Assembly: GCA_964542675.1 (NCBI GenBank)
Contig: CAZIUH010000002.1
Coordinates: forward strand, 98 to 64,097
DNA: 64,000 nt
Source: an uncultured Candidatus Saccharibacteria bacterium
GTDB taxonomy: Bacteria; Patescibacteriota; Minisyncoccia; Phycocordibacterales; PALSA-1337
Reading direction: 5' to 3'
The notes beneath the pieces were generated by a model that saw only the letters and a list, made by a program, of their open reading frames with translations, was not told where the DNA came from and ran no database searches. Numbering within the stretch: position 1 is the first letter of the stretch; the number at the start of each line of letters is the position of its first letter. A program made the position numbers and the translations under genes. Of the stretch, positions 15,087 to 47,996 are shown in pieces.

Positions 15087-15698
15087 TTATTTTTTACCGG
15101 TTTCTGAAACCAAAGTTTTAGACTTTTTTACACTTGTTTTAATATCTTTTTTCACCGCAGCATTTTGAGTGGAAATTTTCGTTTTTTCAATTTTAGGCGC
15201 AGGTTCTTTTTTCCGAGCGACGATTTCCGGCACCTTCGTCATCGTAATTCCCGCTTTCAAAACAATTTCGCCTTTTGCTTCTTCAATCTTTTTCTTTGCG
15301 GATTTGGAAACTAGACAACCGGAAACTTTCAGGACCTTTTTCAATTCTCCGTCACCGAGAATTTTTACGACCGGAATTCTACCTGATACAAGCTTAATCA
15401 CGCCTTTTTCCGCGAGAATAGTCGGCGTAATAGCATCGCCTGACTTGAATATTTCTTCTATAATGCCGAGATTTACAATGACTGGCTTATCGCTCACAGG
15501 TTTATTCTGATTAACACCCCGACCGCGTAATTTCGGCATTTTCTTTATGATATCGCGCCATTCCGGACGTCTTTTGTTTCCGGCACGCGCCGATTGACCT
15601 TTGCCTCCACGGCCAGAAGTTTTACCGCGCTTGCCTCCACGAGCAACTGTCATTCTTTTTCTATTTTTATGAGTTCTTTTCAGTTGATTTGCTTGCAT
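15087..15698 (-). CDS. rplO: 50S ribosomal protein L15 (Lys-rich C-terminal extension)
   Basis: RGGKRGKTSGRGGKGQSARAG uL15 motif. Start taken at MQANQLK. The ORF extends about 60 aa beyond typical uL15. Confidence 0.85.
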   Translation of the reverse strand: MQANQLKRTHKNRKRMTVARGGKRGKTSGRGGKGQSARAGNKRRPEWRDIIKKMPKLRGRGVNQNKPVSDKPVIVNLGIIEEIFKSGDAITPTILAEKGVIKLVSGRIPVVKILGDGELKKVLKVSGCLVSKSAKKKIEEAKGEIVLKAGITMTKVPEIVARKKEPAPKIEKTKISTQNAAVKKDIKTSVKKSKTLVSETGKK

Positions 15699-15711
15699 GT
15701 TATTTAGTGTA

Positions 15712-15808
15712 AAAATTAAAACGCAAAATGACATTGTGATATGTAAAATCGTTCCGTGATGTTATTTTTATTTTTGAATTGTGATTTTTCATTTTGATTT
15801 TTGCATTA
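15712..15808. repeat. second intergenic inverted-repeat family (degenerate), rpsE–rplO spacer
   Basis: AAAATTAAAACGCAAAATGACATTGTGATATG ... TTTTTGAATTGTGATTTTTCATTTTGATTTTTGCATT. Confidence 0.55.
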
Positions 15809-16612
15809 CTTTACTACCGTCCTCCCCCTTAAAATCACCTTTGTAATCTTCGACAAATTCTCCAGGGCAACAATTGTCGCTCTCGCTATATTCACCTTGT
15901 TCTTTGAACCTGACATGATTTTGGCACAAATATCCTTAATGCCAGCAAGCTCAATAACGGCGCGAGCCGAACTGCCGGCGACAACACCACTGCCGCGCGC
16001 CGGAAAAACTTTTATGATAGCACTGCCAAATTTACCTTCCACAGCATGGGGAATAATCATTTGCGGCGAAAGTGAAACTTTTATAAGGTGTTTTTTTGCT
16101 TCGCGCACGGCTTTCTCTATGGAAAGCGCCGTATCAGAACCTTTACCAAGCCCGACACCGACACGTCCTTTATGGTCACCGACCACGGCCGCAACACTGA
16201 AAGTGAATCTGCGTCCGCCGGCAGCCACGCGAGTCACACGGCGAATATCAATAGTCTTGAAATCAAATTCTGGTTTGACGCGCTCCCTGCTTTCTCCACC
16301 GCGTCCACTATCCCTGCCTCTGCCACCTTTCGGAACATCTGAACCTCGCGTACCGCCTCTCCTGGCGGAATCACGCATACGTCTGCCTGGAGTTATTTTA
16401 CCGCGCGCGACAATTGGAACGACAACTGGCGTGGCAACAGAAATAATTTCGCCATCTGCAATATTGGGAATGACGATGTCATCAGCACCAACAGATCCCG
16501 TGATTTCTTCAGCGACAATGGATTCCATGGCTTCTTCGTCTGTCATAATAGGCAAAGCGACAGCGCTTGTATTTGCGTCTTCTTTATTGATTTTTGTATT
16601 ATCGTCTTTCAT
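15806..16612 (-). CDS. rpsE: 30S ribosomal protein S5 (N-terminal extension)
   Basis: RVTRVAAGGRRFTFSVAAVVGDHKGRVGVGLGKGSDTALSIEKA...GSGVVAGSSARAVIELAGI. There is no rpmD (L30) between rpsE and rplO. Confidence 0.9.
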   Translation of the reverse strand: MKDDNTKINKEDANTSAVALPIMTDEEAMESIVAEEITGSVGADDIVIPNIADGEIISVATPVVVPIVARGKITPGRRMRDSARRGGTRGSDVPKGGRGRDSGRGGESRERVKPEFDFKTIDIRRVTRVAAGGRRFTFSVAAVVGDHKGRVGVGLGKGSDTALSIEKAVREAKKHLIKVSLSPQMIIPHAVEGKFGSAIIKVFPARGSGVVAGSSARAVIELAGIKDICAKIMSGSKNKVNIARATIVALENLSKITKVILRGRTVVK

Positions 16613-16613
16613 A

Positions 16614-16645
16614 TTCCTAATTCATAATTCTTAATTCATAATTCA
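16614..16645. repeat. GAATTAN heptamer array (rplR–rpsE spacer)
   Basis: TTCCTAATTCATAATTCTTAATTCATAATTC. Confidence 0.7.
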
Positions 16646-16999
16646 TTAGAAAATCAATCCTCCCTCTCTAGCCCCTTCCGCAACCAATTTGATCTTCCCC
16701 GCGTACAAATATCCTCCTCTATCGAATACAACCTTTTTTAGCTTAGCTTCCAATGCCTTTTTCGCAATACCCAAACCAACTTCCTTGGCTTTTTCCGACA
16801 TGGTCTTGCCTTTCGCTTTCCTTGAATCAAACGAAGTCAAAGTATTTCCTTTCGTATCATCAATCACTTGAGCATATATATATTTATGAGATTTGAAAAC
16901 AGAAAGCCTCGGCATTTCTTTTGTACCGAAAATTTTCGCCCTGACTCTTCTATGACGTCTGTTGAATTTCTCGTTATTTATTTGAATTAAGCTTTTCAT
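16646..16999 (-). CDS. rplR: 50S ribosomal protein L18
   Basis: [36 protein letters not shown]. Confidence 0.9.
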
Positions 17000-17056
17000 T
17001 GTATTATTTGATTGAATTATATTTTGTTGTTTATTGTGTACAATTCATAATTCCTT

Positions 17057-17590
17057 TTACGCCGCCTTTTTACCTTGTTTCCTTCTGATAATTTCATCGG
17101 AGTATCGAATACCTTTTCCCAGATATGGCTCCGGCTTCTTCGTTGCCCTTACAATCGCGGCGAATTGTCCAACTTTTTCGGTATCAATTCCCGAAACAAT
17201 AATAGTGCTCTTCTCCGTCGTTACTTTCAAATCAGCAGGAATGGGAATATTGACAGGATGTGAGAAACCGACAGCCAAAACCAAATCCTTACCTCGTACA
17301 TCTGCTTTGAAACCGATGCCTTCTATGATCAATTTCTTTTCATATGGCTTATTGACGCCTGCGATCATATTTTTCAAATGCGAAGCATATGTACCCCAAA
17401 GCGCTTTATTTTGAAGACTTTCATGACCCAGAGTCAGAACAACGGCGTCTTTTGTGATTTCAAATTTGATATCATCACGAAAATTCTTTTTGAGTTCACC
17501 GAGAGGACCTTTGACGGTCATAACGCCGCCGGAATAAGAGACTTCGGTTTTCGGTGGTATTTGTATGGGTTTTTTTGCGATTCTGGACAT
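17057..17590 (-). CDS. rplF: 50S ribosomal protein L6
   Basis: MSRIAKKPIQIPPKTEVSYSGGVMTVKGPLGEL. Start taken at the internal Met. Confidence 0.9.
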   Translation of the reverse strand: MSRIAKKPIQIPPKTEVSYSGGVMTVKGPLGELKKNFRDDIKFEITKDAVVLTLGHESLQNKALWGTYASHLKNMIAGVNKPYEKKLIIEGIGFKADVRGKDLVLAVGFSHPVNIPIPADLKVTTEKSTIIVSGIDTEKVGQFAAIVRATKKPEPYLGKGIRYSDEIIRRKQGKKAA

Positions 17591-17618
17591 GTTTTTTATA
17601 ATCGGAAAAATCAAACGC

Positions 17619-18005
17619 TTACCAAATCTTGAATAATATCTCTCCGCCAACCTTCATTTTTTTCGCGTCTGTATCCGTTAATATTCCTTTAGGGGTTGAG
17701 TAGATAACATTACCGTACCCACTTTTGAATGAACGGATATCACGAGCCTTCTGATACATTCGCTTTGACAGTTTTGAGATCCTCTGAACGCCGTGTACGC
17801 GCGGCTCATCGTTAAAATAAACAAGTCCAAGTAACAGTTCCTTATTTTCTTTGTCCTTTTCAACAGATGAGAGATAACCTGCTTTCTTCAAAAGATGCGC
17901 GACGTTCTCTGCAAACTTGGAATCCTGAACAACAACAACGGTCTTACCGGCATCACTGCCGTTTTTGATTCGAATTATTAAATCTGAAATTGGATCTGTT
18001 ACCAT
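17619..18005 (-). CDS. rpsH: 30S ribosomal protein S8
   Basis: MVTDPISDLIIRIKNG... Confidence 0.9.
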   Translation of the reverse strand: MVTDPISDLIIRIKNGSDAGKTVVVVQDSKFAENVAHLLKKAGYLSSVEKDKENKELLLGLVYFNDEPRVHGVQRISKLSKRMYQKARDIRSFKSGYGNVIYSTPKGILTDTDAKKMKVGGEILFKIW

Positions 18006-18131
18006 AAAATTAAAATACGTAAAACATATTGGAAAATAATAAATTAAAATTTAATTATCTGTTACGATTATGTTATTCATTTTTGCATTGTGATTTTGCA
18101 TTTTATTTTTTAATCTTTTGCGTTAAACATA

Positions 18132-18317
18132 TTACCAAGATGATTTCTTAACGCCCGGAATCATGCCTTCATTGGCGAATTCTCGGAAACAAATGCGGCA
18201 AATATCGAAATCACGCATATAGCCATGCTTTCGGCCACAGCGGAAACAACGTCTAACAACGCGTGATTTGAATTTCGGTTTTTTTTTCGATCTAGCTATT
18301 ACCGCTTTTGTCGCCAT
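18132..18317 (-). CDS. rpsZ: 30S ribosomal protein S14 type Z (zinc-binding)
   Basis: 61 aa, [23 protein letters not shown]. Confidence 0.9.
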
Positions 18318-18675
18318 AAATGTTTGTCCTTGAAGCAGAAGCAAAGAAAAGGCGATTGGTTAGCTTCCTCTCCGATTTACATCGGAATAGCTTGCTTCCA
18401 ATCATTACCTCATTCCTTTCACTTATTTCGAGGTAATTCGATACTAGCAGATATACGTAATGAAGTCAACAAAATAGCCTGAGCGGTTGAGCACACCCAG
18501 GCTGAAGCGATTTTGTGGTCCTAGAACACTGAGACTGCCCTGTCTAATCGAATGGATAGTAGTTTTAGATAGAACACTCAACATTATGCACGATTTGGTA
18601 GGAAGACAGAACAAAAAGACCGCTGTAACTCCCATTGTCTAGCTCCGTGAATTATACTCTTATTACAGAAAATAA

Positions 18676-20220
18676 TCAATGGTATGAATATGAAAATTTT
18701 ATTTTTTTCTTTTTATCCTTTTTGATCTTTCTTGCTCGATTCATATTCATGGATTTTTCCTCCGGCGTTGGTTCTGGTCCCAAAAATAAGAAATGTAGCT
18801 TACGAATTTCGTCTTGTGGCATAATGGAAAATTCGGCATTATGATCAGCCGATAATTCCTTAAATTTCCTGTCATATTGAAGTGCTTCTTCATGCACTTG
18901 CAATGCCGTGTTATTCAATCCCAGAAGATGTAGCCCAGTCAAAGACCTGAGTCGAGACAATGCCACATAACCCATTCCTTTCTCGAATGATTGGGACAAA
19001 TCTATGTATGCCGCGTCCAAAGACATGCCTTGGCTTTTATGAATCGTGATCGCCCAAGCAAGACGAAGTGGATATTGTTCTATCTCCGCGAGTAATCTAT
19101 CATCGTCTTCAACGCGCCACTTTTCTTTTTCAACATGAATATTACCTCTAGTCGTACGCACGATAATTGATTCATAACCGCAATTTTCGACAATCCCGAG
19201 CGTGCCATTCACGTAACCTTTCTCATAATTATTCTTGACGAACATGACTCGCGCGCCGTGTTTCAAGCGCAAATTGGCAGGCGCCAAGCAACTTTTTTTC
19301 AAACCTTCAACAATCCGTTTATTGCCATGGCTATCCATTTGATATTCGAATACTCGTCCGCCGAGCTTAGCCAGCTCGCGCTCATTCTCGACATCTACAT
19401 TCAAATTGTGAGAATATAATTTCGTTGGTTCAATCCCAGAATTCGGGATCGCTCCTGAGCCGACGCTCCCCGTAGCGGACTTTAGCAAAGCGGAATGATT
19501 AGTGACCCCCGGAGGGAATGTGCCGGCGATACGAGTGGCTGACGACCGACTCCGAAGCAGATCAATAATATCCTTTGTGACTTTGGCGTCTCTAATAGCG
19601 TTCAAAATAGCCAAATATTGCGGGTCGTTTTGGCGGAATTGTTCTTCAAGATAACAAACTATAAATTGGGTTTCTTTCCAGGCTCTTGAATGATAAGCGA
19701 ACTCTGAACTTCCACTCTTATTATATTCATCACATTCGAAAAGTTGTCCATTATCGTCGCTTGGAGAATATGCAGACGCGCGCGAAATAGGCGGCAATTG
19801 AAAAAAATCTCCACAGACTATTATTTGTAAACCACCGAATGGTAAATGTGAATTGCGTACACGTTTCAAAACCCGATTTATCATATCCAATCGGTAATGA
19901 TGCAACATTGAAACTTCATCGATAATCAATACTCTTGCCGCCATTATTCTTTTTGCGGTATTCTCTTTTCCGGCAATTTCATCAATATCATATTCACTAA
20001 GCTTATCCTTTACCCCTATTCCCGCCCAGGAATGTATAGTTATGCCACCCATATGCGTTGCCGCTATACCTGTGGATGCCGTCACGCCAACAGGTATTCC
20101 GCGTTCACACAAGCAGGTCAAATATTCCCGCAAAACATGTGTCTTTCCGCTTCCGGCCGCGCCAGTTAGAAATACATTCGCCCCGGTTTTCAGAATCTTG
20201 AGAGCTTCAACTTGAGTCAT
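18676..20220 (-). CDS. PIF1/RecD-like ATP-dependent DNA helicase (AAA_30/Pif1 family)
   Basis: Walker A GAAGSGKTHVL, LIIDEVSM Walker B, QLPP, C-terminal SH3-like/HTH region, Lys-rich tail. Inserted between rplE and rpsZ. Confidence 0.8.
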   Translation of the reverse strand: MTQVEALKILKTGANVFLTGAAGSGKTHVLREYLTCLCERGIPVGVTASTGIAATHMGGITIHSWAGIGVKDKLSEYDIDEIAGKENTAKRIMAARVLIIDEVSMLHHYRLDMINRVLKRVRNSHLPFGGLQIIVCGDFFQLPPISRASAYSPSDDNGQLFECDEYNKSGSSEFAYHSRAWKETQFIVCYLEEQFRQNDPQYLAILNAIRDAKVTKDIIDLLRSRSSATRIAGTFPPGVTNHSALLKSATGSVGSGAIPNSGIEPTKLYSHNLNVDVENERELAKLGGRVFEYQMDSHGNKRIVEGLKKSCLAPANLRLKHGARVMFVKNNYEKGYVNGTLGIVENCGYESIIVRTTRGNIHVEKEKWRVEDDDRLLAEIEQYPLRLAWAITIHKSQGMSLDAAYIDLSQSFEKGMGYVALSRLRSLTGLHLLGLNNTALQVHEEALQYDRKFKELSADHNAEFSIMPQDEIRKLHFLFLGPEPTPEEKSMNMNRARKIKKDKKKKIKFSYSYH

Positions 20221-20322: not shown

Positions 20323-20874
20323 TTATTTCTTCCCCTCCCTCTTTATCGGGAATCCCAAATGTTCCAGAAATGCCAGCGTGGAATTCTTGTCATGTGAGGT
20401 TGTAACGATGGTGATCGCCATGCCAAAAACGTCTTTCAAATCTTCATCGGAAGTTTCGGCAAAAATAGTATGTTCCTTGACGCCAATAGTGAAATTGCCC
20501 ATATCGTCTACAGCCGTGCGATTTAACCCGCGAAAATCCTTCGTGCGAGGAAGAGCGATATGGATCAAACGGTCAAGAAATTCACACATGCGCTTGCCAC
20601 GAAGAGTGACTTGATATCCGACAGGGTCGCCGATACGAGTCTTGAATGTGGCAATAGCTTTTTTTGTCGCTCTTATCGCGGGTTTTTGTCCGGTAATTCT
20701 GGCAAGACGCTCGGCAATGAGTTCAATTTTCTTTTTATCCTTCACGGATCCGAAACCATTGGAAACAACCACCTTTGTAAGCCGGGGCACCTGCATAGCA
20801 TTCGTAAGTCCCAGCTTCTCTTTCAAGGCTTTGAATGACTCTTTATTAAGTTCATAAATGGATTTGTATTTCAT
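20323..20874 (-). CDS. rplE: 50S ribosomal protein L5
   Basis: MKYKSIYELNKESFKALKEKLGLTNAMQVPRLTKVVVSNGFG. Confidence 0.9.
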   Translation of the reverse strand: MKYKSIYELNKESFKALKEKLGLTNAMQVPRLTKVVVSNGFGSVKDKKKIELIAERLARITGQKPAIRATKKAIATFKTRIGDPVGYQVTLRGKRMCEFLDRLIHIALPRTKDFRGLNRTAVDDMGNFTIGVKEHTIFAETSDEDLKDVFGMAITIVTTSHDKNSTLAFLEHLGFPIKREGKK

Positions 20875-20937
20875 ATAATTAAAATTGGATTTTATATCTT
20901 AAATATATCTTTCTTTTTGAGACTTGAAATTTAATTT

Positions 20938-21156
20938 TTAACTTATCTTTGCAACCTTACACGCGTATATTGGCATCGCTCTTTCGACTATTTGTCCTTT
21001 TGCCCCTTGTTTCTTGGGTCTTTCGGTTTTCTTTGTTATATTCACACCTTCCACTAGGACTTTTCCGAGAGCCGGAAATGCCTTGACAACTTTGCTTTTC
21101 TTACCTTTATCATCTCCTGCCAAGATTTTAACTGTATCTCCTTTTTTTATATGCAT
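20938..21156 (-). CDS. rplX: 50S ribosomal protein L24
   Basis: MHIKKGDTVKILAGDDKGKKSKVVKA. Confidence 0.88.
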   Translation of the reverse strand: MHIKKGDTVKILAGDDKGKKSKVVKAFPALGKVLVEGVNITKKTERPKKQGAKGQIVERAMPIYACKVAKIS

Positions 21157-21200
21157 GGTATTAAGTTAAAAGTGTAAAGTGCGCAAGGCACAAGTTGTGA

Positions 21201-21572
21201 TTAAACGATTTCAGCCGCCTTCGATGCTATGGTTTTGAATCCGGCATCTTGAACTTCTCTCGGAATAGGCCCGAAAATACGGCCCGCGAGAGGTTCTTTT
21301 TTGCCTTTTTCCAAGATGACAACGGCATTCCCATCGAAACGAATATATGAACCATCTTTTCTCCTCGTCGGTTTGACCTGACGAACAACTACCGCCTGAA
21401 GAACGTCTTTCTTCTTGACCGATTTCCTCGGCTCAGCTTTTTGTACAGAAAGAATGACCATGTCTCCGATTTCCGCGTATCGCTTTCTTGTGGCGCCAAG
21501 TACCTTGAATATGCGTCCGATTTTGGCTCCGGAATTGTCTGCGATATTTACGATTGTTCGGGGTTGTATCAT
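21201..21572 (-). CDS. rplN: 50S ribosomal protein L14
   Basis: MIQPRTIVNIADNSGAK... Confidence 0.92.
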   Translation of the reverse strand: MIQPRTIVNIADNSGAKIGRIFKVLGATRKRYAEIGDMVILSVQKAEPRKSVKKKDVLQAVVVRQVKPTRRKDGSYIRFDGNAVVILEKGKKEPLAGRIFGPIPREVQDAGFKTIASKAAEIV

Positions 21573-21579
21573 AATAGTT

Positions 21580-21648
21580 GAATTATGAATTACGAATATA
21601 CATTCTACTTCATTGTTTTATATTCATAATTCGTAATTCTTAATTCAC
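21580..21648. repeat. GAATTAN heptamer-array inverted pair (rpsQ–rplN spacer)
   Basis: GAATTATGAATTACGAATA ... TTCATAATTCGTAATTCTTAATTC. Confidence 0.7.
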
Positions 21649-21902
21649 GCGATGACTCGAAACGCCTTCCTCTTTGAAATCGGCTTACAGGCTTCTACCG
21701 TTGCCTTGTCGCCTAATATTTTCGTATTACCAATGTCTGAAGCCATGATCTTCGTTTTCCTGTTCATGTATTTGTGATACTTCGGATGCTTCACATATCG
21801 TCTGATTTCTACAACAACAGTATCTTTCATCTTGTCGGAAATGACCACACCTTTGAATGTCTGGCGATTTTTCTTATTTTCCTTTGTTTTTATTATTTCC
21901 AT
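21645..21902 (-). CDS. rpsQ: 30S ribosomal protein S17
   Basis: KGVVISDKMKDTVVVEIRRYVKHPKYHKY. Confidence 0.88.
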   Translation of the reverse strand: MEIIKTKENKKNRQTFKGVVISDKMKDTVVVEIRRYVKHPKYHKYMNRKTKIMASDIGNTKILGDKATVEACKPISKRKAFRVIA

Positions 21903-21967
21903 GAATTTCTGATATTACTTGAAATACGTTGATTTGTCTAGTTTAATCTGACTTTTCTTGCCATTGA

Positions 21968-22174
21968 TTATTTATCTTCCGTATTCATCGCGTTTACCGC
22001 TGTCATTATCCTGGCAATATCTTTTTTTACCGCTTTACCCTCCTTTACGTTCTTGGTCTTCGCCCCCGCTCCGCCGAAGCAAAATACGCGCAAAATTTCC
22101 CGTTTTTCACCGAGCATTTTGGCAAGATCTGCGTGCGTCTTATTCTTTATGTTCTTCATTTTTATTGCTTTCAT
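21968..22174 (-). CDS. rpmC: 50S ribosomal protein L29
   Basis: MKAIKMKNIKNKTHADLAKMLGEKREILRV... Start taken at the internal Met; the upstream ORF extension overlaps a hairpin. Confidence 0.75.
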   Translation of the reverse strand: MKAIKMKNIKNKTHADLAKMLGEKREILRVFCFGGAGAKTKNVKEGKAVKKDIARIMTAVNAMNTEDK

Positions 22175-22282
22175 GATATAAAAAAGCTCATCCGAGCTAT
22201 GAAAAGATATTATCAAGTAAGTTTAATCAAGTCAATAGAAGTCAATAGAAGTTGTTATTTGTACTCATGGTATAATGAGCGT

Positions 22283-24168: not shown

Positions 24169-24594
24169 TTACATTCTAGCAACTATCCTTGTCTTTAGTG
24201 GCAACTTTGTTCCCGCTTTGCGGAGCGCTTCTTCGGCAATTTTGGGCTCAACACCGTCAATTTCAAAAACGATTCTACCCGGTTTGACCTCGGCGATGAA
24301 ACCAACGATGTCGCCTTTACCTTTACCCATTTTCACTTCGGCTGGTTTCTGAGTATACGGATGATCTGGAAAAACGCGAATCCAGACTTTACCTGTTTTC
24401 CCCGCCTTGTGCATAGCCGCCTTGCGCGCCGCTTCGATCTGATTTGACGTCACACGAGCGTATTCGAGTGCCTTCAAACCAAATGAACCAAAAGCAATGC
24501 TAATACCGCGAGTATCGGCATGAATAGCCTCCTTCAAAGGATTTTGTCTCATTGTGAACCATTTGCGATGCTTTACTTTTTTGGGAATTAACAT
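24169..24594 (-). CDS. rplP: 50S ribosomal protein L16
   Basis: MLIPKKVKHRKWF... Confidence 0.92.
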   Translation of the reverse strand: MLIPKKVKHRKWFTMRQNPLKEAIHADTRGISIAFGSFGLKALEYARVTSNQIEAARKAAMHKAGKTGKVWIRVFPDHPYTQKPAEVKMGKGKGDIVGFIAEVKPGRIVFEIDGVEPKIAEEALRKAGTKLPLKTRIVARM

Positions 24595-25380: not shown

Positions 25381-25387
25381 TTTTATA

Positions 25388-38747: not shown

Positions 38748-38785
38748 ACCAAAAAAACCGTTCCGATACGCGTCGGAACGACTTT
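38748..38785 (-). terminator. rho-independent terminator downstream of rplC
   Basis: On the minus strand, CGTTCCGACGCGTATCGGAACG stem followed by TTTTTTT. Confidence 0.55.
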
Positions 38786-38803
38786 TATTCCAAATTATAA
38801 AAA

Positions 38804-39412: not shown

Positions 39413-39442
39413 GGTATTTGTTTTTTACTAAGCACTAATTCA

Positions 39443-39550
39443 GGAAAAGTCTCGTAACGGAACCGACACTTCTCGGAGTGAGCCTTAGCAGAGCGGAGCG
39501 ATTAAGGGCTCACGGAGAGAATGTGTCGGTGAAGGAAACGAGATTTTTCC
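39443..39550 (-). promoter_or_regulatory. long, highly structured GC-rich intergenic RNA element between rpsJ and rplC
   Basis: 13-bp outer stem GGAAAAGTCTCGT/ACGAGATTTTTCC and inner CCGACAC...GTGTCGG, GTGAGCC/GGCTCAC pairings, about 110 nt. No T-run after it, so it is not a simple terminator. Confidence 0.45.
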
Positions 39551-39580
39551 TGACCACATGACACACGAATTAAAGTTAAA

Positions 39581-39994
39581 TTACATCATCTTCACATCGA
39601 TATTCACTCCCGACGGCAAACTCATATTGGTCAGCGCTTCGATAACTTTCGGATTCGGATTTACAATATCAATAAGACGCCTGTGAACTCTCATTTCGAA
39701 CTGCTCACGCGCGTTCTTATCTATGAACGAAGAGCGATTTACCGTGTATTTCTTGATCTCCGTCGGCAAAGGCACTGGACCGTGAATTTCCGCGTCATAG
39801 CGCGCCGCCGTGTCCATGATCTGTTTAAGTGACGCGTCGAGAATTTTGTGTTCATACGCGCGGACACGGATGCGGAGATGCGGGACTTCACCCTCTGTTT
39901 TTGCCGCCTTCTTAACACGAGAAGACTTCTTGACTGCGTGTTTTGTAGCCTTAACAACTTCATGCTCTTGAATTGTTGTCTTCGTCGCTGACAT
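39581..39994 (-). CDS. rpsJ: 30S ribosomal protein S10 (N-terminal extension)
   Basis: LRIRVRAYEHKILDASLKQIMDTAARYDAEIHGPVPLPT... Confidence 0.9.
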   Translation of the reverse strand: MSATKTTIQEHEVVKATKHAVKKSSRVKKAAKTEGEVPHLRIRVRAYEHKILDASLKQIMDTAARYDAEIHGPVPLPTEIKKYTVNRSSFIDKNAREQFEMRVHRRLIDIVNPNPKVIEALTNMSLPSGVNIDVKMM

Positions 39995-40000
39995 TAGAAT

Positions 40001-41188
40001 TTATGCGATAACCTTGGTTACAACTCCGGCGCCAACCGTCTTACCGCCTTCACGTACCGCGAATCTCTGTTTGTCTTCTAGAGCGACGGGAGCAACAAGT
40101 TTAACCTTGAAAGTGACGGTGTCGCCAGGCATAACCATCTCTACTTTTTCAGGCAAAGTCACTTCACCAGTAACATCGGTAGTACGAATATAGAATTGTG
40201 GCTTGTAACCCGTGAAGAACGGAGTATGACGGCCGCCTTCTTCCTTCTTTAGAACATAAACTTCTGATTCAAATTCGGTATGTGGTTTGACGGAACCCGG
40301 TTTTGCCAATACTTGCCCGCGTGATACATCATCCTTTCCGGTACCACGGAGAAGCACACCGGCATTGTCTCCACAAATACCTTCCTTCAAAGATTTATTG
40401 AACATTTCAATGCCCGTAACAACAGTTTTGGATGTATCTTTGAATCCGACGATTTCAACTTCTTCGCCGACCTTGATTTTCCCGCGTTCAATACGGCCTG
40501 TTACGACTGTACCGCGTCCTTCAATAGAAAAGATATCTTCTATCGGCATTAGAAACGGTTTATCGGTTTCGCGAACCGGTTCAGGAATATACGTGTCTAG
40601 AGCGGTTATAAGTTCATCAATCTTGGTTGTCCACGCCGCGTCACCAGCCAAGGCGCCAGAAGCCGAACCGCGAATAACCGGAGTATTCGCTCCATCAAAT
40701 TTGTTCTTGGTCAAGAGTTCACGCACTTCCTCTTCGACTAGATCAATGAGATCTTTTTCCGGCACAAGGTCACATTTGTTTAGAAAGACGACAATCTTCG
40801 GCACACCGACTTGATACGCGAGTAGGACATGCTCGCGAGTTTGCGGCATAACACCATCTGTCGCTGAAACCACGAGTATAGCTCCGTCCATTTGGGCGGC
40901 GCCGGTAATCATATTTTTAATGAAGTCGGCATGTCCCGGACAATCGATATGAGCGTAATGACGAGTTGGTGATTCGTACTCCACATGCGAAAGTGAAATC
41001 GTAACGGTTTTTGTCGCGTCACGAACCGTGCCTCCCTTTGTAATGTCGGCATAAGCTTTGACTTGAGCTAGACCTTTCTTGCTTTGAACAGCGAGAATAG
41101 CGGCGGTCAAAGTCGATTTGCCGTGGTCAATGTGACCAATTGTGCCCACATTCATGTGGGGCTTACTGCGATTGAATTCTGTAGCCAT
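40001..41188 (-). CDS. tuf: elongation factor Tu
   Basis: [26 protein letters not shown] motifs. 395 aa. Confidence 0.95.
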
Positions 41189-41487
41189 AATATTGTTTTA
41201 TTGCTTTAGCTCGCTTCGCGTGTGTGTGATTCGCCTGTAATTCATCTCCGCCACTTGAAGTGAAAGAAATGAAAACAGAACAAAACGCGGCGAGAGCCAA
41301 AGATAAATTATTAATAGTTTTAATAAATACTAACAAAGACGCTGTATAGCGCGTACTCTGTAGGATAGCATGACGAGAAATATTGTCAATCATCTCATAA
41401 ATATCTTTATAAATTCACCGAACAAACACTCGCAAATCATAGGCGATTGTTCGGTGAATTATCAATGCATGTCACAATTCAATGCGA

Positions 41488-43500
41488 TTATTGCGGTTTT
41501 TGGAGATATTCTTTGAAGGCGTCCCAGATATTGGCTGTTGGTATTGTACTTACTGTTGTAGCCGGTTGTACCGTGACTTGCGATGAAACACCAACAGCAT
41601 AGTTTGGATTATCAGACAAATATTCATAGAAGTTCGGTACGATATTTTGAGCCGAAAACGTTGTATTATCGATTCGGAAAACAACGCTTCGTACTGTGGC
41701 TGAATTGAATTTTGTCATTTTGTTGCATAGAGATGTATTGCCACCTATATCACCGATCCATACAGCCGAGACTCCGGACGGACAACTCAAATAAAGCGCT
41801 GATGACACTGCGTTGCTATGTGTAGTGAAGTTCAGGGTTACAGTACTACCAGAATTAACCATTGAAACAGAAGGGGTGATAGAGAGTGAGCCAGTAGGAG
41901 TACTTGAGGTTACGGTAAAGATATGTGTGTTACTATTCTTTCCTATAGTCAGATCAGAATCATTAACCACACTCAGTCCATATGATCCAATCGAAACTGA
42001 ACCTGGAATAGCAAAAGAGATTGTTGAACCGTTACTTGAAGAGGCTAGATAAGTGTTTCCGGCAATTAGAATCCGATTATATGAACCAAAACCTGAACCC
42101 GTAATCGAAACCATGCTTCCTACTGGACCTGATGTTGGATAAATAGAAGTTATAGATGATTGGGGTAAATCTGATATTTTAGGATTAATTAGAGTTACTA
42201 TATGTCCTGCACTTGTTTGACCCGATGAGTTCGTAACATAGACCGCAGGGAATCCAGATGGTAATGATGGAACAATAAATCTTGCAGTTGTACCATATGT
42301 TTCTGTTACCGTAACAGGGTTTGTTGAACCGCCAACTTTTACTGACAACATTCCACTAAGCCCAGTACCATAAATGGTTGCCCAATTATTTGCATGGATA
42401 GTATTTTCAGGATCGCCAGCTGATTGGACATTCGAAATAGTTGGTCTAATTGAAGTTACATCTGAAGCCGTTGTCTGTGTCGTTACCTGTGTTGGCGTAA
42501 TACTAGAAGCAGGAATTATACCTACCGCTTGCGTGCCATCGGTAAATTCCACATAAATCTTTCCACCACTGAACCTAGAACTTTCTGGTTGGCCATATAG
42601 TTTGAGATTGTATGTGCCAGTACCCGTCATAATATTCTGATTATAAACAGTATTCACTTGTGAACCATCACGAGTGACTACAAGTGGATATGGTGTCTCT
42701 TTGTAACCATAAAGATCTGCTCCATCATTCAAGTAACGGGAATCCCCTGTTGACCATACTTCACCAGCCAAATTGTGCTTGACTGTAATACGAGAAATTG
42801 TTTTTTGTGAAGGAAGTGTTACGGTTGCATACCATTGCCAATCATTCGGATTTGAATTTACATTGGCGGCATTTGGACTAAACTGACCCCAAGCACCAGC
42901 TTTGTCTTCTCCAGCATAATAGAGATACGCGGATACAGTAGTGCCGGGAGCTTGGGACGTATCGGTTTTGATATTGGTGCTGGTATTGGTATTAGCATTT
43001 GTACCTGTCAATGAAGATGCTGTACAAACCGTATTGAACTTCGCACGCGTCAGAGGTCCAAAGTATGATTCGGTAATACCATTCGCATTTTGATATCGTT
43101 GTAATGCCGTTACCGTTTGAGAACCATAATATCCCTTCGTGGCTTGTCCAGAAGATATTGCTGGAATATCATAACCGAGTTTCATAAGCCATGATTGGAG
43201 AGTTTCTACATCTATTCCCATGCTTCCTTGTCGTAGATTTGTTGTATATTGATAGCATTTATTACTATTTGTGGCTGTTGTGACTGTCGTATCAGTTGTC
43301 GCTTTACAAATATATCCAGTAGGACAATTTGATATTTGTGCGACGGGAGTACATATATACCCTTCCGGACACGCGGGAAGCACAGTACATATGTAACCTG
43401 CAGGACAAGTAACGGCCTCCACATTCACTGGACTCGACACTAGTACCACGAACGCGAAGATCGCAATCGGTACAAGTGACGAAATTAATATTTTTTTCAT
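41488..43500 (-). CDS. secreted protein: signal peptide, three CPxGYIC(T/K) Cys repeats, peptidoglycan-binding (PG_binding_1-like) domain, Thr/Ser-rich Ig-like C-terminal region
   Basis: MKKILISSLVPIAIFAFVVLV signal. CPAGYICT, CPEGYICT, CPTGYICK repeats. LQSWLMKLGYDI...TVTALQRYQNANGI. 670 aa. Inserted between fusA and tuf. Confidence 0.6.
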   Translation of the reverse strand: MKKILISSLVPIAIFAFVVLVSSPVNVEAVTCPAGYICTVLPACPEGYICTPVAQISNCPTGYICKATTDTTVTTATNSNKCYQYTTNLRQGSMGIDVETLQSWLMKLGYDIPAISSGQATKGYYGSQTVTALQRYQNANGITESYFGPLTRAKFNTVCTASSLTGTNANTNTSTNIKTDTSQAPGTTVSAYLYYAGEDKAGAWGQFSPNAANVNSNPNDWQWYATVTLPSQKTISRITVKHNLAGEVWSTGDSRYLNDGADLYGYKETPYPLVVTRDGSQVNTVYNQNIMTGTGTYNLKLYGQPESSRFSGGKIYVEFTDGTQAVGIIPASSITPTQVTTQTTASDVTSIRPTISNVQSAGDPENTIHANNWATIYGTGLSGMLSVKVGGSTNPVTVTETYGTTARFIVPSLPSGFPAVYVTNSSGQTSAGHIVTLINPKISDLPQSSITSIYPTSGPVGSMVSITGSGFGSYNRILIAGNTYLASSSNGSTISFAIPGSVSIGSYGLSVVNDSDLTIGKNSNTHIFTVTSSTPTGSLSITPSVSMVNSGSTVTLNFTTHSNAVSSALYLSCPSGVSAVWIGDIGGNTSLCNKMTKFNSATVRSVVFRIDNTTFSAQNIVPNFYEYLSDNPNYAVGVSSQVTVQPATTVSTIPTANIWDAFKEYLQKPQ

Positions 43501-43646: not shown

Positions 43647-45791
43647 CTACTTCCTCTTCTCCTGAATCTCCAAGGCCACATTCGCCGGCACCACCTCATA
43701 ATGGTCAAATTCCATCATGGCACTACCCTGTCCCGAAGTCATGGAACGAAGCTGGGTTGTATAACCGAACATTTCAGATAACGGAACTTTGGCATGAATG
43801 GCCAGCGCCATACCGCGGGGCTCGGAACCTTCCACTTGACCGCGCTTGGCGGCGATAGAACCATTGATATCGCCCATGTACTTTTCCGGAGCGACGATTT
43901 CCAGTTTCATAATAGGTTCCAGAATAACCGGTTTGGCGCGCTTGGTGGCGTCTTGGAAAGCTTGAGAAGCGGCAATCTTGTAGGCGATTTCTGAAGAGTC
44001 AACATCATGATATGAACCGAACGTCAGTTCACAAGAAATGTTCACCATCTTGTATCCAGCCACAATACCGCGATCCATGGCTTCATGAACACCTTTTTCA
44101 ACCGCCGGAATAAATTCATTCGGAATAACGCCACCCTTGATAGAGTTTACGAATTCGAAATCATCGAAGCGATGAACGGTTTTCGGCATTTTCTTGTCTT
44201 CTGGCCATGGCTCCATAGGTTTGATATTGAGTTTGACATGACCATATTGTCCTTTACCGCCAGTTTGTTTGATGTATTTGTGTTCCGCCTCCGCCGAACC
44301 GAGGATTGTTTCGCGATACGCTACCTGCGGTTCGCCCGTGTTCGTCTCCACGCCAAATTCGCGCTTCATGCGTTCAACCATGATTTCCAGATGTAATTCA
44401 CCCATTCCAGAAATGATAGTCTCACCTGTTTCCTGATTCGTGGAAATCCTGAATGTCGGATCTTCATTGCCAAGTTTGCGAAGTGCCATGCCCATTTTCT
44501 CTTGATCAGCTTTCGTTTTTGGCTCAACGCGCAAAGAAATGACCGGTTCCATGAATTTGATCTTCTCGAGAACGATCGGATTGTTCTCATCACAAAATGT
44601 ATGCGAAGTCAGAGCGTCCTTGAGTCCCACCGCGGCGGCAATCTCTCCGGCAAAAACTTTTTTTACTTCTTCACGATCATTGGCTTGCAGACGCACTATT
44701 CGGCCAAGCCTTTCTTTCTTGCCCGTCGTGGAATTGTAAAGATATGTTCCCGATTCAACAGTTCCGGAATATACGCGGAAAAATGTTAACTGTCCGACGA
44801 ACGGGTCGCTCTGGAGTTTGAATGCCAAAGCGGCAAAAGGTTCTTCATCCGAAGCGTGGCGAATAATTTCTTCGCCCGTATTCGGATTGACGCCTTTGAC
44901 CGGTGGCATATCGAGAGGTGACGGTAAATAGTCAACGACAGCGTCCAAAACGAGTTGAACACCCTTGTTTTTCAGAGCAGAACCGGTAAATACCGGGAAA
45001 ATCTTATTCTCAATAACAGCTTTCCGAACCGTTTTTTTGAGTTCATCCAGAGGAATTTCTTTACCCTCAAGATAATGACTCATCTGCGTATCATCATGTT
45101 CGACGATTTTTTCTATGAGTTCGGCGTGAAATTTCTTCGCGTCATTCAACAAATGTTCCGGGATTTCCTCTTCACGAACTATTTCGCCCATTTTTCCATC
45201 AAAGTAGTATGCCTTCATGCGAAGAAGATCAACAACACCGTTATGTTGCTCCTCCATGCCGATAGGGATTTGAAATCTGACTGCCTTCAAACTCAAACGC
45301 TCTAATATGGACTTGAATGAAAACTCAAAAGACGCGCCCATGCGATCCATTTTATTAATGAAACAGAGGCGCGGCACATTACCTTCATCGGCATAACGCC
45401 AATTTGTCTCGGATTGCGGCTCAACACCGGCAACGCCGTCGAAAACAACTACCGCGCCGTCCAAAACACGCAAAGATCTCTTTACTTCGGCGGTAAAATC
45501 GATATGCCCGGGAGTGTCGATTATATTAAAACGAACCTTTCTTGAAGTATCCGTAGGCGACATATATGTCGGATTCCAGAAGCATGTGATGGCGGCTGCC
45601 GTAATCGTGATACCGCGTTCTCTCTCCTGCTCCATCCAATCGGTTACCGTATCACCTTCATGTACCTCACCGATCTTATGTGTCATACCGGTATAAAACA
45701 AAATACGCTCGGAAGTTGTCGTCTTGCCAGCGTCAATATGCGCTATGACGCCAAAATTACGCACTTTTTCTAATGGACAGTCGCGATTCAT
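43647..45791 (-). CDS. fusA: elongation factor G
   Basis: 714 aa. NFGVIAHIDAGKTTTSERIL, DTPGHIDF. Confidence 0.95.
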   Translation of the reverse strand: MNRDCPLEKVRNFGVIAHIDAGKTTTSERILFYTGMTHKIGEVHEGDTVTDWMEQERERGITITAAAITCFWNPTYMSPTDTSRKVRFNIIDTPGHIDFTAEVKRSLRVLDGAVVVFDGVAGVEPQSETNWRYADEGNVPRLCFINKMDRMGASFEFSFKSILERLSLKAVRFQIPIGMEEQHNGVVDLLRMKAYYFDGKMGEIVREEEIPEHLLNDAKKFHAELIEKIVEHDDTQMSHYLEGKEIPLDELKKTVRKAVIENKIFPVFTGSALKNKGVQLVLDAVVDYLPSPLDMPPVKGVNPNTGEEIIRHASDEEPFAALAFKLQSDPFVGQLTFFRVYSGTVESGTYLYNSTTGKKERLGRIVRLQANDREEVKKVFAGEIAAAVGLKDALTSHTFCDENNPIVLEKIKFMEPVISLRVEPKTKADQEKMGMALRKLGNEDPTFRISTNQETGETIISGMGELHLEIMVERMKREFGVETNTGEPQVAYRETILGSAEAEHKYIKQTGGKGQYGHVKLNIKPMEPWPEDKKMPKTVHRFDDFEFVNSIKGGVIPNEFIPAVEKGVHEAMDRGIVAGYKMVNISCELTFGSYHDVDSSEIAYKIAASQAFQDATKRAKPVILEPIMKLEIVAPEKYMGDINGSIAAKRGQVEGSEPRGMALAIHAKVPLSEMFGYTTQLRSMTSGQGSAMMEFDHYEVVPANVALEIQEKRK

Positions 45792-45940: not shown

Positions 45941-46492
45941 TTATACTCTCCTTATGTCAAATCTAAGTTTATGCTTCGGTGATATTGGTTTGTCCATAAA
46001 TCGCTTCATATGTGAATATAATTCAGTAAGTCCTATCCCCTGCCGAATCTGTTCCAGCTCCAATTTATCAACTTTATTCGCAAGATCTTTGTTATTTGAG
46101 ATCATTCGACGAAGTTTGACGAATGCGCGCATGATGAAAATATTCATTTGCACAGCCTTATCACTATTCAGAACTGAGGAAAGCATGGCCACACCAAGCT
46201 CGGTAAAGACATATGGCAATTGATGAGAAAATCTCCGAACAGAAAGGTGGTCGCAAATTGCGACCACCTTATTCTTTTCATCGGCAGTTAATCTAAACAT
46301 AAAGTCATTTGGAAACCTAGCTATATTACGTTTTACTTGTTCATTCAATCATTTTGTTGGTATCTGATAAAGTTCTGCCAAGTCAAAATCAAGCATGACT
46401 TTCTGTCCACGGATCAAATGAATCCGTCGTTCTATGAATGCTGGAGTAACTGGCATAATCAAACTTGTTTCAATTATTTTAACTTCTTTCAT
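45941..46492 (-). pseudogene. ORF6N-domain (KilA-N/antirepressor-like) gene interrupted by an in-frame TGA
   Basis: Upstream frame MKEVKIIETSLIMPVTPAFIERRIHLIRGQKVMLDFDLAELYQIPTK, then TGA (46351-46349), then LNEQVKRNIARFPNDFMFRLT... in the same frame. Together they span the complete ORF6N domain. Confidence 0.6.
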
Positions 46493-46617
46493 CGCCACAG
46501 TTTATCAACACAAAACATCCCGTCAATATTGACAGGATGTTTTGTAATTTTAGAAACTATTCACATGAAATCCTCAGTATGCTACAATTAATTAAACAAT
46601 TCAAAAGAAAGGTTCTC

Positions 46618-46734
46618 ATGAAAAAATTCTTACTCGAGCTCTTTGCACCATTTCGTAATCCAAAGATAACTGGGGGCCTACTAATAATCTGTATTATCGT
46701 CTCAATTATCCTCACATGGCTATTTCCGAGATAG
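46618..46734 (+). CDS. possible small hydrophobic peptide (38 aa, 1 TM)
   Basis: MKKFLLELFAPFRNPKITGGLLIICIIVSIILTWLFPR. Followed at about 46755-46783 by a plus-strand hairpin plus T-run. No SD evident. Confidence 0.25.
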   Translation: MKKFLLELFAPFRNPKITGGLLIICIIVSIILTWLFPR

Positions 46735-46792
46735 GATATGGAGATAGGTATACAAAGAGATCAACCAAAGGTCTCTTTTTTCTTCTTTCCTT

Positions 46793-47263
46793 TTACCACG
46801 CAAAGTGCGCGAAAGCCTTGTTTGCCTCTGCCATTTTGTGAACATTCTCGCGTTTCTTCACGGCTTCGCCTTCATTCTTGGAAGCGGCGATGATTTCGTC
46901 TGTAAGTTTGAGATGCATCGGCTTGCCTTTCTTGCCTCGCGCGGCCTCGATAATCCATTTCATGGAAAGAGCTTGCTTGCGCTCTGGACGGACTTCACGC
47001 GGAACTTGATAGTTGGCGCCACCGACGCGACGAGAACGGACTTCCATAGCCGGAGTCGTATTTTTGAGGGCAAGCTCGAATATTTCCATCGGATTTTCCG
47101 TCTTGGCTTGCTCCTTTATAGCCGTCATACAATCATGCACGATTGTACGAGCAATGTTTTTCTTGCCTTCTTGCATAACATAATTCACGAATTTGGAAAT
47201 CTTCACAGAATCATAAATCGCGTCTGGTCTCAATTCTCTCTTTGTTTTTATTTTGCGTCGCAT
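46793..47263 (-). CDS. rpsG: 30S ribosomal protein S7
   Basis: [38 protein letters not shown]... Confidence 0.92.
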
Positions 47264-47274
47264 GGTTTTGGAAT

Positions 47275-47329
47275 AAATTATGAATTACGAATTAACACAA
47301 GAAAATTTATTCATAATTCTTAATTCGAC
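47275..47329. repeat. GAATTAN heptamer-array inverted pair (rpsL–rpsG spacer)
   Basis: AAATTATGAATTACGAATTAAC ... TTCATAATTCTTAATTCGAC. Confidence 0.7.
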
Positions 47330-47334
47330 TTATT

Positions 47335-47754
47335 CTAGCTTTTAACCGCCTTCGGCCTCTTATTGCCGTATTGACTGCGACCTTTTCTCCTAGCCTCCAC
47401 GCCAGCACAATCCAATACGCCACGAACGATAGAATATCGCAAACCGACATCTTTGACGCGACCGCCGCGAAGCAGAACCACAGCGTGTTCCTGTAGATTA
47501 TGCCCCATTCCCGGAACATAGGCTGTAACTTCCATACCGTTTGTTAGGCGCACGCGGGCGATTTTGCGTATAGCGGAGTTAGGTTTTTTCGGAGTCTTGG
47601 TTGTAACCTTAGTGCAAACTCCCCTCTTGAATGGCGCCGGGAAAAATATTGGACGATTTTTGATACTATTGAATGTACGCGTCAGAGCGATGGATTTTGA
47701 CTTCCTCTTGAAAAGTTTCCTATGAGTTTTCGTCAACTGATTGATTGTTGGCAT
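47335..47754 (-). CDS. rpsL: 30S ribosomal protein S12
   Basis: [13 protein letters not shown]...PKKPNSA.RK. Start taken at the internal Met. Confidence 0.92.
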
Positions 47755-47996
47755 ATTATTTTTAGACGCAAGTGCGCAAGGCACAGGTACGCAGGTGGCA
47801 AGTTTGAATTCTTCACCGCTTTTAGTTTGAGTTATGGTCCTTTTTAGCCTTGAATATGATTCCCGGCTAATTCTTGACCGACCAAACGCGATTACTCATT
47901 CTTGCCCGTAAATTACATATCCCGAATAATAGTGGGACAGTGGGGATACATTAACATCTGAATAATAATAATGCAAGCCATTTAGGTTCCTTGATA

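Follow-up and report, generated by a model that had tools for sequence, protein, structure and literature searches.

Few gene arrangements in life are as conserved as the S10–spc–str supercluster of ribosomal protein genes, a conservation usually explained by the need for co-transcription and stoichiometric expression. The 64,000-nucleotide stretch analyzed here (the window; positions 98 to 64,097 of contig CAZIUH010000002.1, assembly GCA_964542675.1) carries a supercluster in which blocks of ribosomal genes alternate with unrelated accessory genes, hereafter called cargo. Like the canonical supercluster of E. coli and B. subtilis, it has the same genes in strict colinear order from rpsL to map on one strand. 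It differs from that arrangement in holding about 21 kb of unrelated genes at seven junctions, in lacking rpmD and in having an alpha operon that is not attached. The interrupted borders fusA/tuf, rplB/rpsS and rplE/rpsZ lie within single operons of E. coli, according to the limits of the str, S10 and spc operons.

The closest described systems are of two kinds. In Gammaproteobacteria and Bacilli, a process termed invasion–separation brings a few genes in between operons of the translation cluster (Brandis 2021, PMC8046335; Brandis, Cao & Hughes 2019, PMC6735719). Intrachromosomal events outweighed long-distance horizontal gene transfer in that study, and insertions were rare across 204 genomes and situated mainly between the classical operons (PMC8046335). 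The present locus is similar in its ordinary cargo and its apparently relocated native MFS transporter gene, but it is broken within the classical S10, spc and str operons, in 40-92% of the species in the class and in association with a conserved promoter–leader module. The second kind comprises hotspots flanked by core genes, such as the core defence hotspots of P. aeruginosa (PMC10250203) and the defence-island hotspots of E. coli (PMC10121019). Such hotspots are reported to share with the present locus fixed pairs of conserved flanks and highly variable cargo, often without an obvious mobility gene; they differ from it in that the flanks here are essential ribosomal genes, defence genes are a minority and the comparison is among species and not strains. 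No account of such a pattern in the candidate phyla radiation (CPR) turned up in a literature search.

The host, a bacterium with a tiny genome, belongs to the Patescibacteria, class Paceibacteria (Paceibacteria/Taylorbacteria group), and the closest rplB matches are metagenome-assembled genomes labelled Taylorbacteria, Paceibacterota, Minisyncoccia or 'Saccharibacteria'. The 27 core genes were all found on the minus strand, from 47784 to 9497 (25 with NCBIfam equivalogs, adk and map with Pfam), and their order is the canonical one: rpsL, rpsG, fusA, tuf, rpsJ, rplC, rplD, rplW, rplB, rpsS, rplV, rpsC, rplP, rpmC, rpsQ, rplN, rplX, rplE, rpsZ, rpsH, rplF, rplR, rpsE, rplO, secY, adk and map. 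The same scan for core genes found no rpmD (L30) in the cluster, a loss that is expected in the CPR and is a trait of the lineage. The cluster is far from contiguous, since seven junctions hold 1.0-8.75 kb of unrelated protein-coding DNA (about 20.9 kb summed) and divide it into about eight blocks (Table 1). An initial annotation of this DNA had described a str–S10–spc cluster interrupted by accessory genes at eight or more junctions. The core order, the cargo and every insert that it named (ORF6N, the peptidoglycan (PG)-binding protein, MFS, the 8.75-kb block, a restriction–modification (R–M) pair, Pif1 and an ATPase) were recovered with NCBIfam and Pfam, but the protein-coding interruptions number seven, and the eighth is a non-coding palindromic element of 110 nt between rpsJ and rplC.

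A scan with the L2 protein of the window yielded 80 loci from species-dereplicated genomes (65-93% L2 identity; individual loci are cited with the prefix L), each covering ±10 kb around rplB. Window proteins were placed on these loci by tblastn and every junction was measured, with more than 400 bp counted as an interruption. Where both flanks were seen, fusA/tuf was interrupted in 26 of 30 loci, rplB/rpsS in 42 of 56, rplE/rpsZ in 18 of 35 and secY/adk in 8 of 20. Lower frequencies were found at rpsG/fusA (5/17), rpsJ/rplC (5/64), rplC/rplD (3/70), rplP/rpmC (1/36) and adk/map (2/9), and the approximately 18 remaining junctions are essentially never interrupted, most showing 0-2 interruptions in 30-75 loci. 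When open-ended breaks are included, in which the expected neighbour is missing despite more than 700 bp of available sequence, the counts rise to 45 of 49 for fusA/tuf, 60 of 74 for rplB/rpsS and 26 of 43 for rplE/rpsZ. In the count with both flanks seen, interruptions are very uneven across junctions (chi-square 625, 26 df), and the four most affected junctions account for 94 of the 118 occupied gaps.

Four of the seven broken junctions in the window are therefore broken in 40-92% of relatives, which does not support the earlier picture of many independent insertions into a contiguous locus. Relatives with at least 18 junctions covered have 0-4 breaks, usually 3, against 7 in the window. The window thus stands at the far end of a modular architecture that is typical of the lineage. 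The further proposal that the locus is a hotspot holds for some junctions, where fixed conserved flanks enclose differing cargo in different relatives, with dozens of families per junction and a concentration beyond chance. At rplP/rpmC only one covering relative (L005) has cargo, and this is a 975-aa surface protein and not an R–M pair.

Alignment of upstream regions revealed a conserved module of about 66 nt that consists of TTGAC(T/C), a 17-nt spacer, an extended -10 sequence TGnTAnnAT, 6-10 nt, a GCTC-N4-6-GAGC hairpin and a T-run, with the start codon 0-30 nt further on. A covariance model of this module (R1), trained on 29 rpsS and 10 rplD examples, finds exactly four sites in the 64-kb window, upstream of rpsS (62 bits), rplD (54 bits), rpmC (43.5 bits, E 2.7e-7, a site outside the training set) and rpsZ (22.9 bits). 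The same model finds 85 sites in 1.17 Mb of relatives, all of them on the same strand as the operon, with a gene of a ribosomal protein block less than 200 nt downstream (rpsS 47, tuf 20, rplD 9, rpsZ 7, rpmC 1, rplC 1); none of the 85 precedes a cargo gene. The lone rpmC site is that of L005, the sole relative with cargo at rplP/rpmC, and the lone rplC site is in L055, where it follows 3 kb of cargo. The rplD module of the window's sub-clade occurs together with cargo in the window, L003, L004, L005, L006 and L019, occurs without cargo in L007, L008 and L011, and is absent where rplC abuts rplD. Homology of the window to its closest relatives at the nucleotide level restarts exactly at this module (window 37162), and the same module is kept in L003, L004 and L006, where genes other than rplC precede rplD.

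Terminator-like hairpins in the relatives are found after fusA (12 of 30), rplB (16 of 78), rplE (13 of 46) and secY (8 of 25), and after 0-9% of other genes. Promoter-like sites, defined by at least 10 of 12 consensus matches, lie upstream of tuf (32/50), rpsS (30/56) and rpsZ (11/35), and of 0-9% of genes elsewhere. Within the window, the terminators that had been proposed after rplB, rplC and fusA were all recovered as predicted hairpins, and a further one follows the MFS gene. Those after rplC, fusA (11-bp stem) and MFS combine a strong hairpin with a T-run, while the one after rplB is a bidirectional terminator-like hairpin (14-bp stem) enclosed in a 204-bp element whose inverted ends are 31 bp long. 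A predicted terminator with a 10-bp stem comes after Pif1, and the candidate rpsZ promoter comes next. A scan of the window detected no terminator between rplP and the restriction endonuclease (REase) gene, rplE and Pif1, secY and the ATPase gene, or the ATPase gene and adk; transcription of the ribosomal blocks may continue into REase, Pif1 and the ATPase gene. The transcriptional fragmentation that the initial annotation had proposed is plausible, given predicted terminators and promoters at several junctions.

Two further leaders were observed. Between the rpsZ promoter and start codon lies a conserved, structured leader (18345-18440) with the pairing GATTGG…CCAATC (GATTGGAAGCA…GCTAACCAATC), which is also present in L006, L009, L013 and L019 whatever the upstream cargo, and which could be an autoregulatory binding site for a ribosomal protein. 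The tuf leader (window 41189-41300, and in relatives) has a conserved hairpin CTTTGGC…GCCAAAG in which the stem letters vary and complementarity is kept, and it is preceded by the terminator-like sequence GCGTTTTAT. No known ribosomal leader RNA reached the Rfam gathering score anywhere in the window, the rpsZ leader included; the tmRNA is the only match. Two predicted open reading frames (ORFs) in these regions were rejected as genes. Neither orf76 (41163-41393), which overlaps the tuf promoter and leader, nor orf63 (18444-18635), which overlaps the Pif1 terminator and the rpsZ promoter, has any family match, and both are probably non-coding.

The gaps of the relatives contain 300 ORFs, which consist of a few recurrent families and 223 singletons. 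Half of these (150) match Pfam, in 72 families that are mostly singletons and mostly of ordinary function. Recurrent cargo includes type IV pilins at rplE/rpsZ, PyrD-PyrE-PyrF at fusA/tuf, DagK with PyrF, PyrE-like, PyrC and PyrD at rplB/rpsS and an antisense cytidylate kinase at secY/adk, as well as an ornithine/diaminopimelate decarboxylase. Within the window's own sub-clade, a MacAB-type pump with a histidine kinase is recurrent at rplB/rpsS. Close relatives carry giant surface proteins, a serpin, a PMT glycosyltransferase, a MazF toxin, an exonuclease and an aminotransferase. The relatives' cargo is thus mostly metabolic, envelope or pilin genes, and the locus is not a defence island. In the window, PADLOC identified a single complete defence system, the type II R–M pair, together with a degraded candidate gene, PDC-S05.

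Relatives have some of the window's cargo genes at the same junctions. At rplB/rpsS, the MFP-ABC-FtsX genes of the pump are found in at least 12 loci, the histidine kinase in 6 and the DEAD-box helicase in L003 and L004. Homologues of the PG-binding protein occupy fusA/tuf in at least 5 loci (35-57% identity; L005, L015, L016, L019, L026), a Pif1 homologue occupies rplE/rpsZ in L013 (46% identity), and an ORF6N homologue occupies rpsG/fusA in L022 (53% identity by tblastn). Alignment to this last homologue reveals a single in-frame stop at 46349-46351 that is fixed in 5 independent assemblies, so that the description of ORF6N as a pseudogene stands; it is a decayed defence-candidate gene. The MFS, SWIB and VanY genes, the R–M pair and the ATPase gene have no counterpart at the same junction in any of the 80 loci. 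Comparison of synteny, which the initial annotation had named as the check on recent insertion, thus partly refutes it, in that the broken junctions and the first group of genes are common to relatives and the other cargo was not seen at the same junction in any of their loci. A homologue of the DEAD-box helicase (46-59% identity) also lies about 1-2 kb upstream of rpsL in more distant relatives (L039, L050, L061, L065, L068, L074, L080), so that this gene recurs near the translation cluster, though not at a fixed position.

Base composition is native in 12 of the 15 cargo genes. The core genes have a GC content of 0.438 ± 0.032, compared with 0.335 for the REase gene and 0.330 for the methyltransferase (MTase) gene (R–M z -3.3); ORF6N (0.368) deviates less clearly, and the MFS gene, the 8.75-kb block, Pif1 and the ATPase gene do not have a foreign composition. 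The R–M pair consists of an EcoRI-like REase (Pfam EcoRI, E 4e-16) and a D12 N6-adenine MTase (PADLOC REase_II and MTase_II, E 9e-105), an adjacent REase and cognate-type MTase encoded by convergent genes with an 8-bp overlap. The REase is 205 aa long, aligns to positions 18-162 only of the 257-position EcoRI model and may be divergent; the real start of the MTase is probably about 30 codons further in. The MTase family is very widespread, with hundreds of homologues at 70-77% identity, and the closest of these (77%) is paired with the same convergent EcoRI-like REase in an unrelated context, beside SMODS/AGS_C, Rep and serine-recombinase genes. This second occurrence marks the R–M pair as a mobile cassette, and it is the only cargo that looks recently foreign.

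The MFS gene belongs to a family whose homologues (50-77% identity) are labelled Taylorbacteria, Paceibacterota or Minisyncoccia. Of three homologues examined, none lies beside ribosomal genes; one is beside the dcw cluster, one between dprA and topA and one among hypothetical genes. We read the MFS gene as a native gene that was probably relocated from elsewhere in the genome. Strong GC deviation is limited to the R–M pair and the MFS family is native, so a foreign origin of the inserts in general is not supported. The genes said to lie on the opposite strand (MTase, histidine kinase and VanY) do so. The ATPase is likewise present, but its length is 935 aa from the ATG at 13721 and not 952. 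It matches phrog_5156 over its full length (E 2e-76), its matches to type IV coupling protein (T4CP) domains are weak (E ~5e-7) and stand alongside DUF8128, and there are no type IV secretion system genes nearby. Most VirD4-like genes of Patescibacteria are far from virB4, and such genes are common and dispersed (PMC12102498). A viral origin of the cargo was considered and rejected; the ATPase has no close relative in IMG/VR, and Pif1 has one match there (45% identity), on a viral-classified contig without ribosomal context.

The explanation we favour, with a probability of roughly 70%, is that the supercluster has a modular architecture typical of this lineage and that its block borders are permissive sites of gene flux. 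It builds on the observed anatomy, junction statistics, module distribution and sharing of cargo. In Paceibacteria the supercluster would then consist of a series of autonomous transcription blocks and would not be co-transcribed as a single long array. The blocks located after a break (rplD, rpsS, rpmC and rpsZ, and tuf with a different leader) would start with a σ70-type promoter, followed in four of them by a short conserved 5' hairpin and U-run, and several blocks would close with an intrinsic terminator. We infer from sequence that the module is an active promoter, that its hairpin is a leader that stabilises mRNA or acts as an attenuator, and that the formation of a new break is accompanied by the gain of a module copy. 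Insertion of DNA after a terminator and before the next module would leave co-transcription and translational coupling within each block intact. Cargo in this position would thus be harmless to the block, making the borders permissive, and genes would be gained, lost and swapped there over evolutionary time, which would make the content of a given junction differ from species to species. Permissiveness, and not benefit to the cargo, would explain the pattern.

The standard borders of the lineage are fusA/tuf, rplB/rpsS, rplE/rpsZ and secY/adk. This genome combines these four breaks with three rarer ones (rpsG/fusA, rplC/rplD and rplP/rpmC). In two of these three cases the ribosomal gene after the break would have acquired its own copy of the module, which would keep it expressed. 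Its cargo would be a mixture of inherited accessory genes (the MacAB-type pump, the kinase, the DEAD helicase and the PG-binding surface protein), the relocated native MFS gene and one recently acquired mobile type II R–M cassette. A more far-reaching version holds that the module is a portable, duplicating 'operon-splitting' cassette whose landing between two ribosomal genes frees the downstream genes in transcription and opens a safe harbour for cargo exchanged between relatives by recombination across the ultra-conserved flanks, that the supercluster is a principal hotspot of gene flux in the streamlined Patescibacteria, and that the shared hairpin coordinates the dispersed blocks in trans, replacing co-transcription. 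This version is speculative and we consider it unlikely.

Several points weigh against the favoured explanation. The promoters, terminators and leader hairpin are predictions, and 39 of the rpsS and rplD modules are the training sequences of R1. The hairpin stem exhibits weak covariation with few compensatory changes and is conserved mainly at the level of sequence, so that an RNA structure is not demonstrated. No module was detected before fusA, tuf or adk in the window, where just weaker promoter-like sites were found. The survey of ±10 kb around rplB under-samples cargo-rich relatives, the downstream junctions rest on 20-35 genomes, and all 80 relatives come from one class, with no other phylum as control. 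Finally, the nearest reference is only about 78-82% identical in DNA, a distance at which 'recent' and 'ancestral' are not separable for the MFS, ATPase, SWIB and VanY genes.

An alternative closer to the initial annotation is that selfish or defence genes entered a contiguous operon recently, many times and independently, because they profit from read-through of the very strong ribosomal promoters. The foreign GC content of the R–M pair, the match of ORF6N to the PADLOC candidate PDC-S05 and the presence of a Pif1/Dda-like helicase and an ATPase matching phrog_5156 all speak for it, and part of the window's cargo does have a defence or mobile character; the cargo of the lineage, however, is dominated by housekeeping and accessory genes. 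Similarly, REase, Pif1 and the ATPase gene are co-oriented directly 3' of rplP, rplE and secY with no terminator detected between, cargo across the lineage is mostly oriented with the operon, and a MazF toxin and rare IS200-type transposases occur in the relatives' gaps. Yet the MFS and PG-binding genes are insulated by predicted terminators (MFS with its own promoter-like site as part of a self-contained cassette), three cargo genes are antisense and the module stands before ribosomal blocks and not before cargo, and so the supposed benefit of high expression to the cargo fits poorly. The four junctions broken in most relatives, with cargo partly common to them, and the native composition of most cargo genes are likewise difficult to reconcile with recent insertion. 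No integrase, recombinase or transposase was found among the window cargo with Pfam, NCBIfam, PADLOC or PHROGs, and the direct and inverted repeats flanking five inserts examined are chance-level short matches only, with no target duplications. Taken together, we consider recent selfish insertion improbable. Mis-assembly is a far weaker candidate still. The window is a MEGAHIT metagenome contig (ena:ERZ27248937:k141_361643) and several relatives' contigs end at these junctions, as a chimera formed at conserved genes might produce, but six of the seven junctions and both outer borders of the rplB/rpsS block recur with the same neighbours in independent ENA MEGAHIT, Logan and JGI contigs from several samples. 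Each arrangement is found in 2-12 contigs: rplC-MFS-rplD in 9, rplP-REase-MTase-rpmC in 9 (JGI and Logan among them), rplE-Pif1 in 10, secY-ATPase-adk in 12 and rpsG-ORF6N-fusA-PGbind in 10, with ORF6N truncated in all; rplB-tRNA_bind-DEAD occurs in a second assembly and VanY-rpsS is likewise reproduced independently. Relatives with complete chromosomes or contigs of >100 kb are also broken at the same junctions. This recurrence excludes chimeric assembly, the check that had been called for at each junction, and an artefact of this kind is extremely improbable.

A third alternative is compatible with the favoured explanation and supplies a mechanism for the flux. In this model the conserved flanks (fusA, tuf, rplB, rpsS, rplE and rpsZ) act as homology arms through which homologous recombination swaps in DNA from diverged relatives, the pattern of hotspots flanked by core genes. 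It accords with differing cargo between identical flanks in species-level relatives, with the failure to find integrases or att-like repeats at the inserts, and with the presence in this genome of genes for ComEC, RecJ and a set of pilus-related proteins. In L013 (5723-5809, fusA codons 686-714, 83% identity) and L055 (12280-12366, rplB codons 244-272, 86%), a short duplicate of the 3' end of the upstream core gene lies beyond the cargo, and these duplicates look like footprints of insertion events. Such footprints number only 2 among about 118 gaps, however, and the junctions rpsL/rpsG and rplN/rplX have equally conserved flanks and are never occupied; flank conservation alone thus fails to explain the positions. 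We regard recombination between flanks as a tentative possibility, at somewhat less than even odds.

The modular architecture, if correct, has implications beyond this genome. A whole class appears to break the supercluster routinely at the same internal positions, with the pieces carrying the same module, which would show how an essential super-operon is dismantled without loss of function and would offer a system for the study of operon splitting and of gene flux at 'permissive sites'. Binning and phylogeny of this group rely on 16 syntenic ribosomal proteins on one contig. Variable cargo at the junctions helps to explain why contigs fragment there, and accessory genes can be assigned confidently to a genome through their ribosomal neighbours.

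Table 1. Ribosomal blocks and cargo of the window, in the order of transcription of the cluster (window positions; promoters, terminators and modules are predictions).
Feature	Position	Strand	Content and basis
Block 1	46793..47784	-	rpsL 47335-47784 (start uncertain), rpsG 46793-47263; NCBIfam TIGR00981, TIGR01029
Cargo 1, rpsG/fusA	45941..46492	-	ORF6N / PDC-S05-like pseudogene; Pfam PF10543; PADLOC PDC-S05 E 8e-38
Block 2	43647..45791	-	fusA, then terminator hairpin 43593-43568; TIGR00484, 1046 bits
Cargo 2, fusA/tuf	41488..43500	-	670-aa protein, signal-like N-terminus and PG_binding_1 domain; Pfam
Block 3	38804..41465	-	promoter-like sites 41465-41436 and 41389-41362, tuf 40001-41188, rpsJ 39581-39994, rplC 38804-39412
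Cargo 3, rplC/rplD	37163..38786	-	MFS cassette: terminator 38786-38753, promoter-like site TTGACA-18-TATTAT 38733-38704, MFS gene 37197-38441, terminator 37188-37163, then module and rplD
Block 4	34922..37161	-	module 37161-37095, rplD 36422-37087, rplW 35909-36385, rplB 34922-35773; NCBIfam
Cargo 4, rplB/rpsS	26427..34908	mixed	8.75 kb; MITE-like element 34705-34908; genes called with Pfam/NCBIfam
Cargo 4, genes		-	tRNA_bind 34065-34541, DEAD-box helicase 32330-33742
Cargo 4, MacAB-like pump		-	MFP 30719-32254, ABC 29962-30705, FtsX 28711-29961
Cargo 4, genes			histidine kinase 27812-28687 (+), SWIB 27481-27738, VanY 26427-27401 (+)
Block 5	24169..26270	-	module 26270-26205, rpsS 25818-26168, rplV 25422-25808, rpsC 24700-25380, rplP 24169-24594; NCBIfam
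Cargo 5, rplP/rpmC	22199..24086		predicted type II R–M cassette: REase 23469-24086 (-), MTase 22199-23476 (+)
Block 6	20323..22240	-	module 22240-22175, rpmC 21968-22174, rpsQ 21645-21902, rplN 21201-21572, rplX 20938-21156, rplE 20323-20874; NCBIfam
Cargo 6, rplE/rpsZ	18476..20220	-	Pif1/Dda-like superfamily 1B (SF1B) helicase 18676-20220, terminator 18503-18476
Block 7	13800..18474	-	promoter 18474-18430, rpsZ 18132-18317, rpsH, rplF, rplR, rpsE 15806-16612, rplO 15087-15734, secY 13800-15083; NCBIfam
Cargo 7, secY/adk	10914..13721	-	935-aa ATPase: DUF8128 and VirD4/TraD-like (T4CP-like) P-loop domain; Pfam
Block 8	9497..10870	-	adk 10277-10870, map 9497-10267; Pfam

The palindromic element in the rpsJ/rplC spacer (window ~39442-39555) is one of a family of ~110-nt elements, with further copies in the window at ~49110-49215 and ~19450-19555, the latter inside Pif1, and others in L003 (4033-4118), L004 (9375-9413) and L113-L130. 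The predicted RNA folds have energies of -56 to -71 kcal/mol (z about -7 to -8); a core of ~75 nt is conserved, and the outer stems vary among copies with complementarity retained. The degenerate copy in Pif1 is in frame and adds ~30 aa that are lacking in homologues. The exact loop motif was found in 18 metagenome stretches from groundwater and lakes, approximately half of them within long ORFs. No Rfam family matches the element, and nothing significant was found in the rpsJ/rplC spacer. Small repeats of the repetitive extragenic palindromic (REP) and miniature inverted-repeat transposable element (MITE) types, and the Rickettsia palindromic elements (RPE), form its comparison class. Like RPE it sits both in spacers and in frame within protein genes, but its sequence family and its host phylum are not those of RPE. 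The MITE-like element at rplB/rpsS (204 bp) begins 14 bp past the rplB stop and has perfect 31-bp terminal inverted repeats, with its internal 14-bp-stem hairpin placed between A and T runs; L004 has a copy of the internal part, with 78% identity, at a different site (5960-6089).

Certain ribosomal proteins of the window differ in length. S5 (rpsE) has an N-terminal extension of ~110 aa, L15 (rplO) a C-terminal extension of ~55 aa and the L23 ORF (rplW) ~70 additional N-terminal residues, and L24 (rplX) is just 72 aa, covering the first 73 of 104 model positions. The cluster stops after map, where ndk (8824-9432 onward), a DUF2238 protein and an RNase J-like beta-CASP nuclease come next, and infA-rpmJ-rpsM-rpsK-rpsD-rpoA-rplQ (the alpha operon) is not attached 3' of map. 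Upstream of rpsL, an M50 peptidase gene, rpmB (+), comEC, rnhA and recJ are present instead of rpoB and rpoC. There is no tRNA gene in the 64-kb window, and the sole tRNA-like gene is that of the tmRNA (3181-3547; Rfam 97 bits; tag peptide AKSSVSPYFGAKDFAFAFV), which adjoins smpB (3629-4105).

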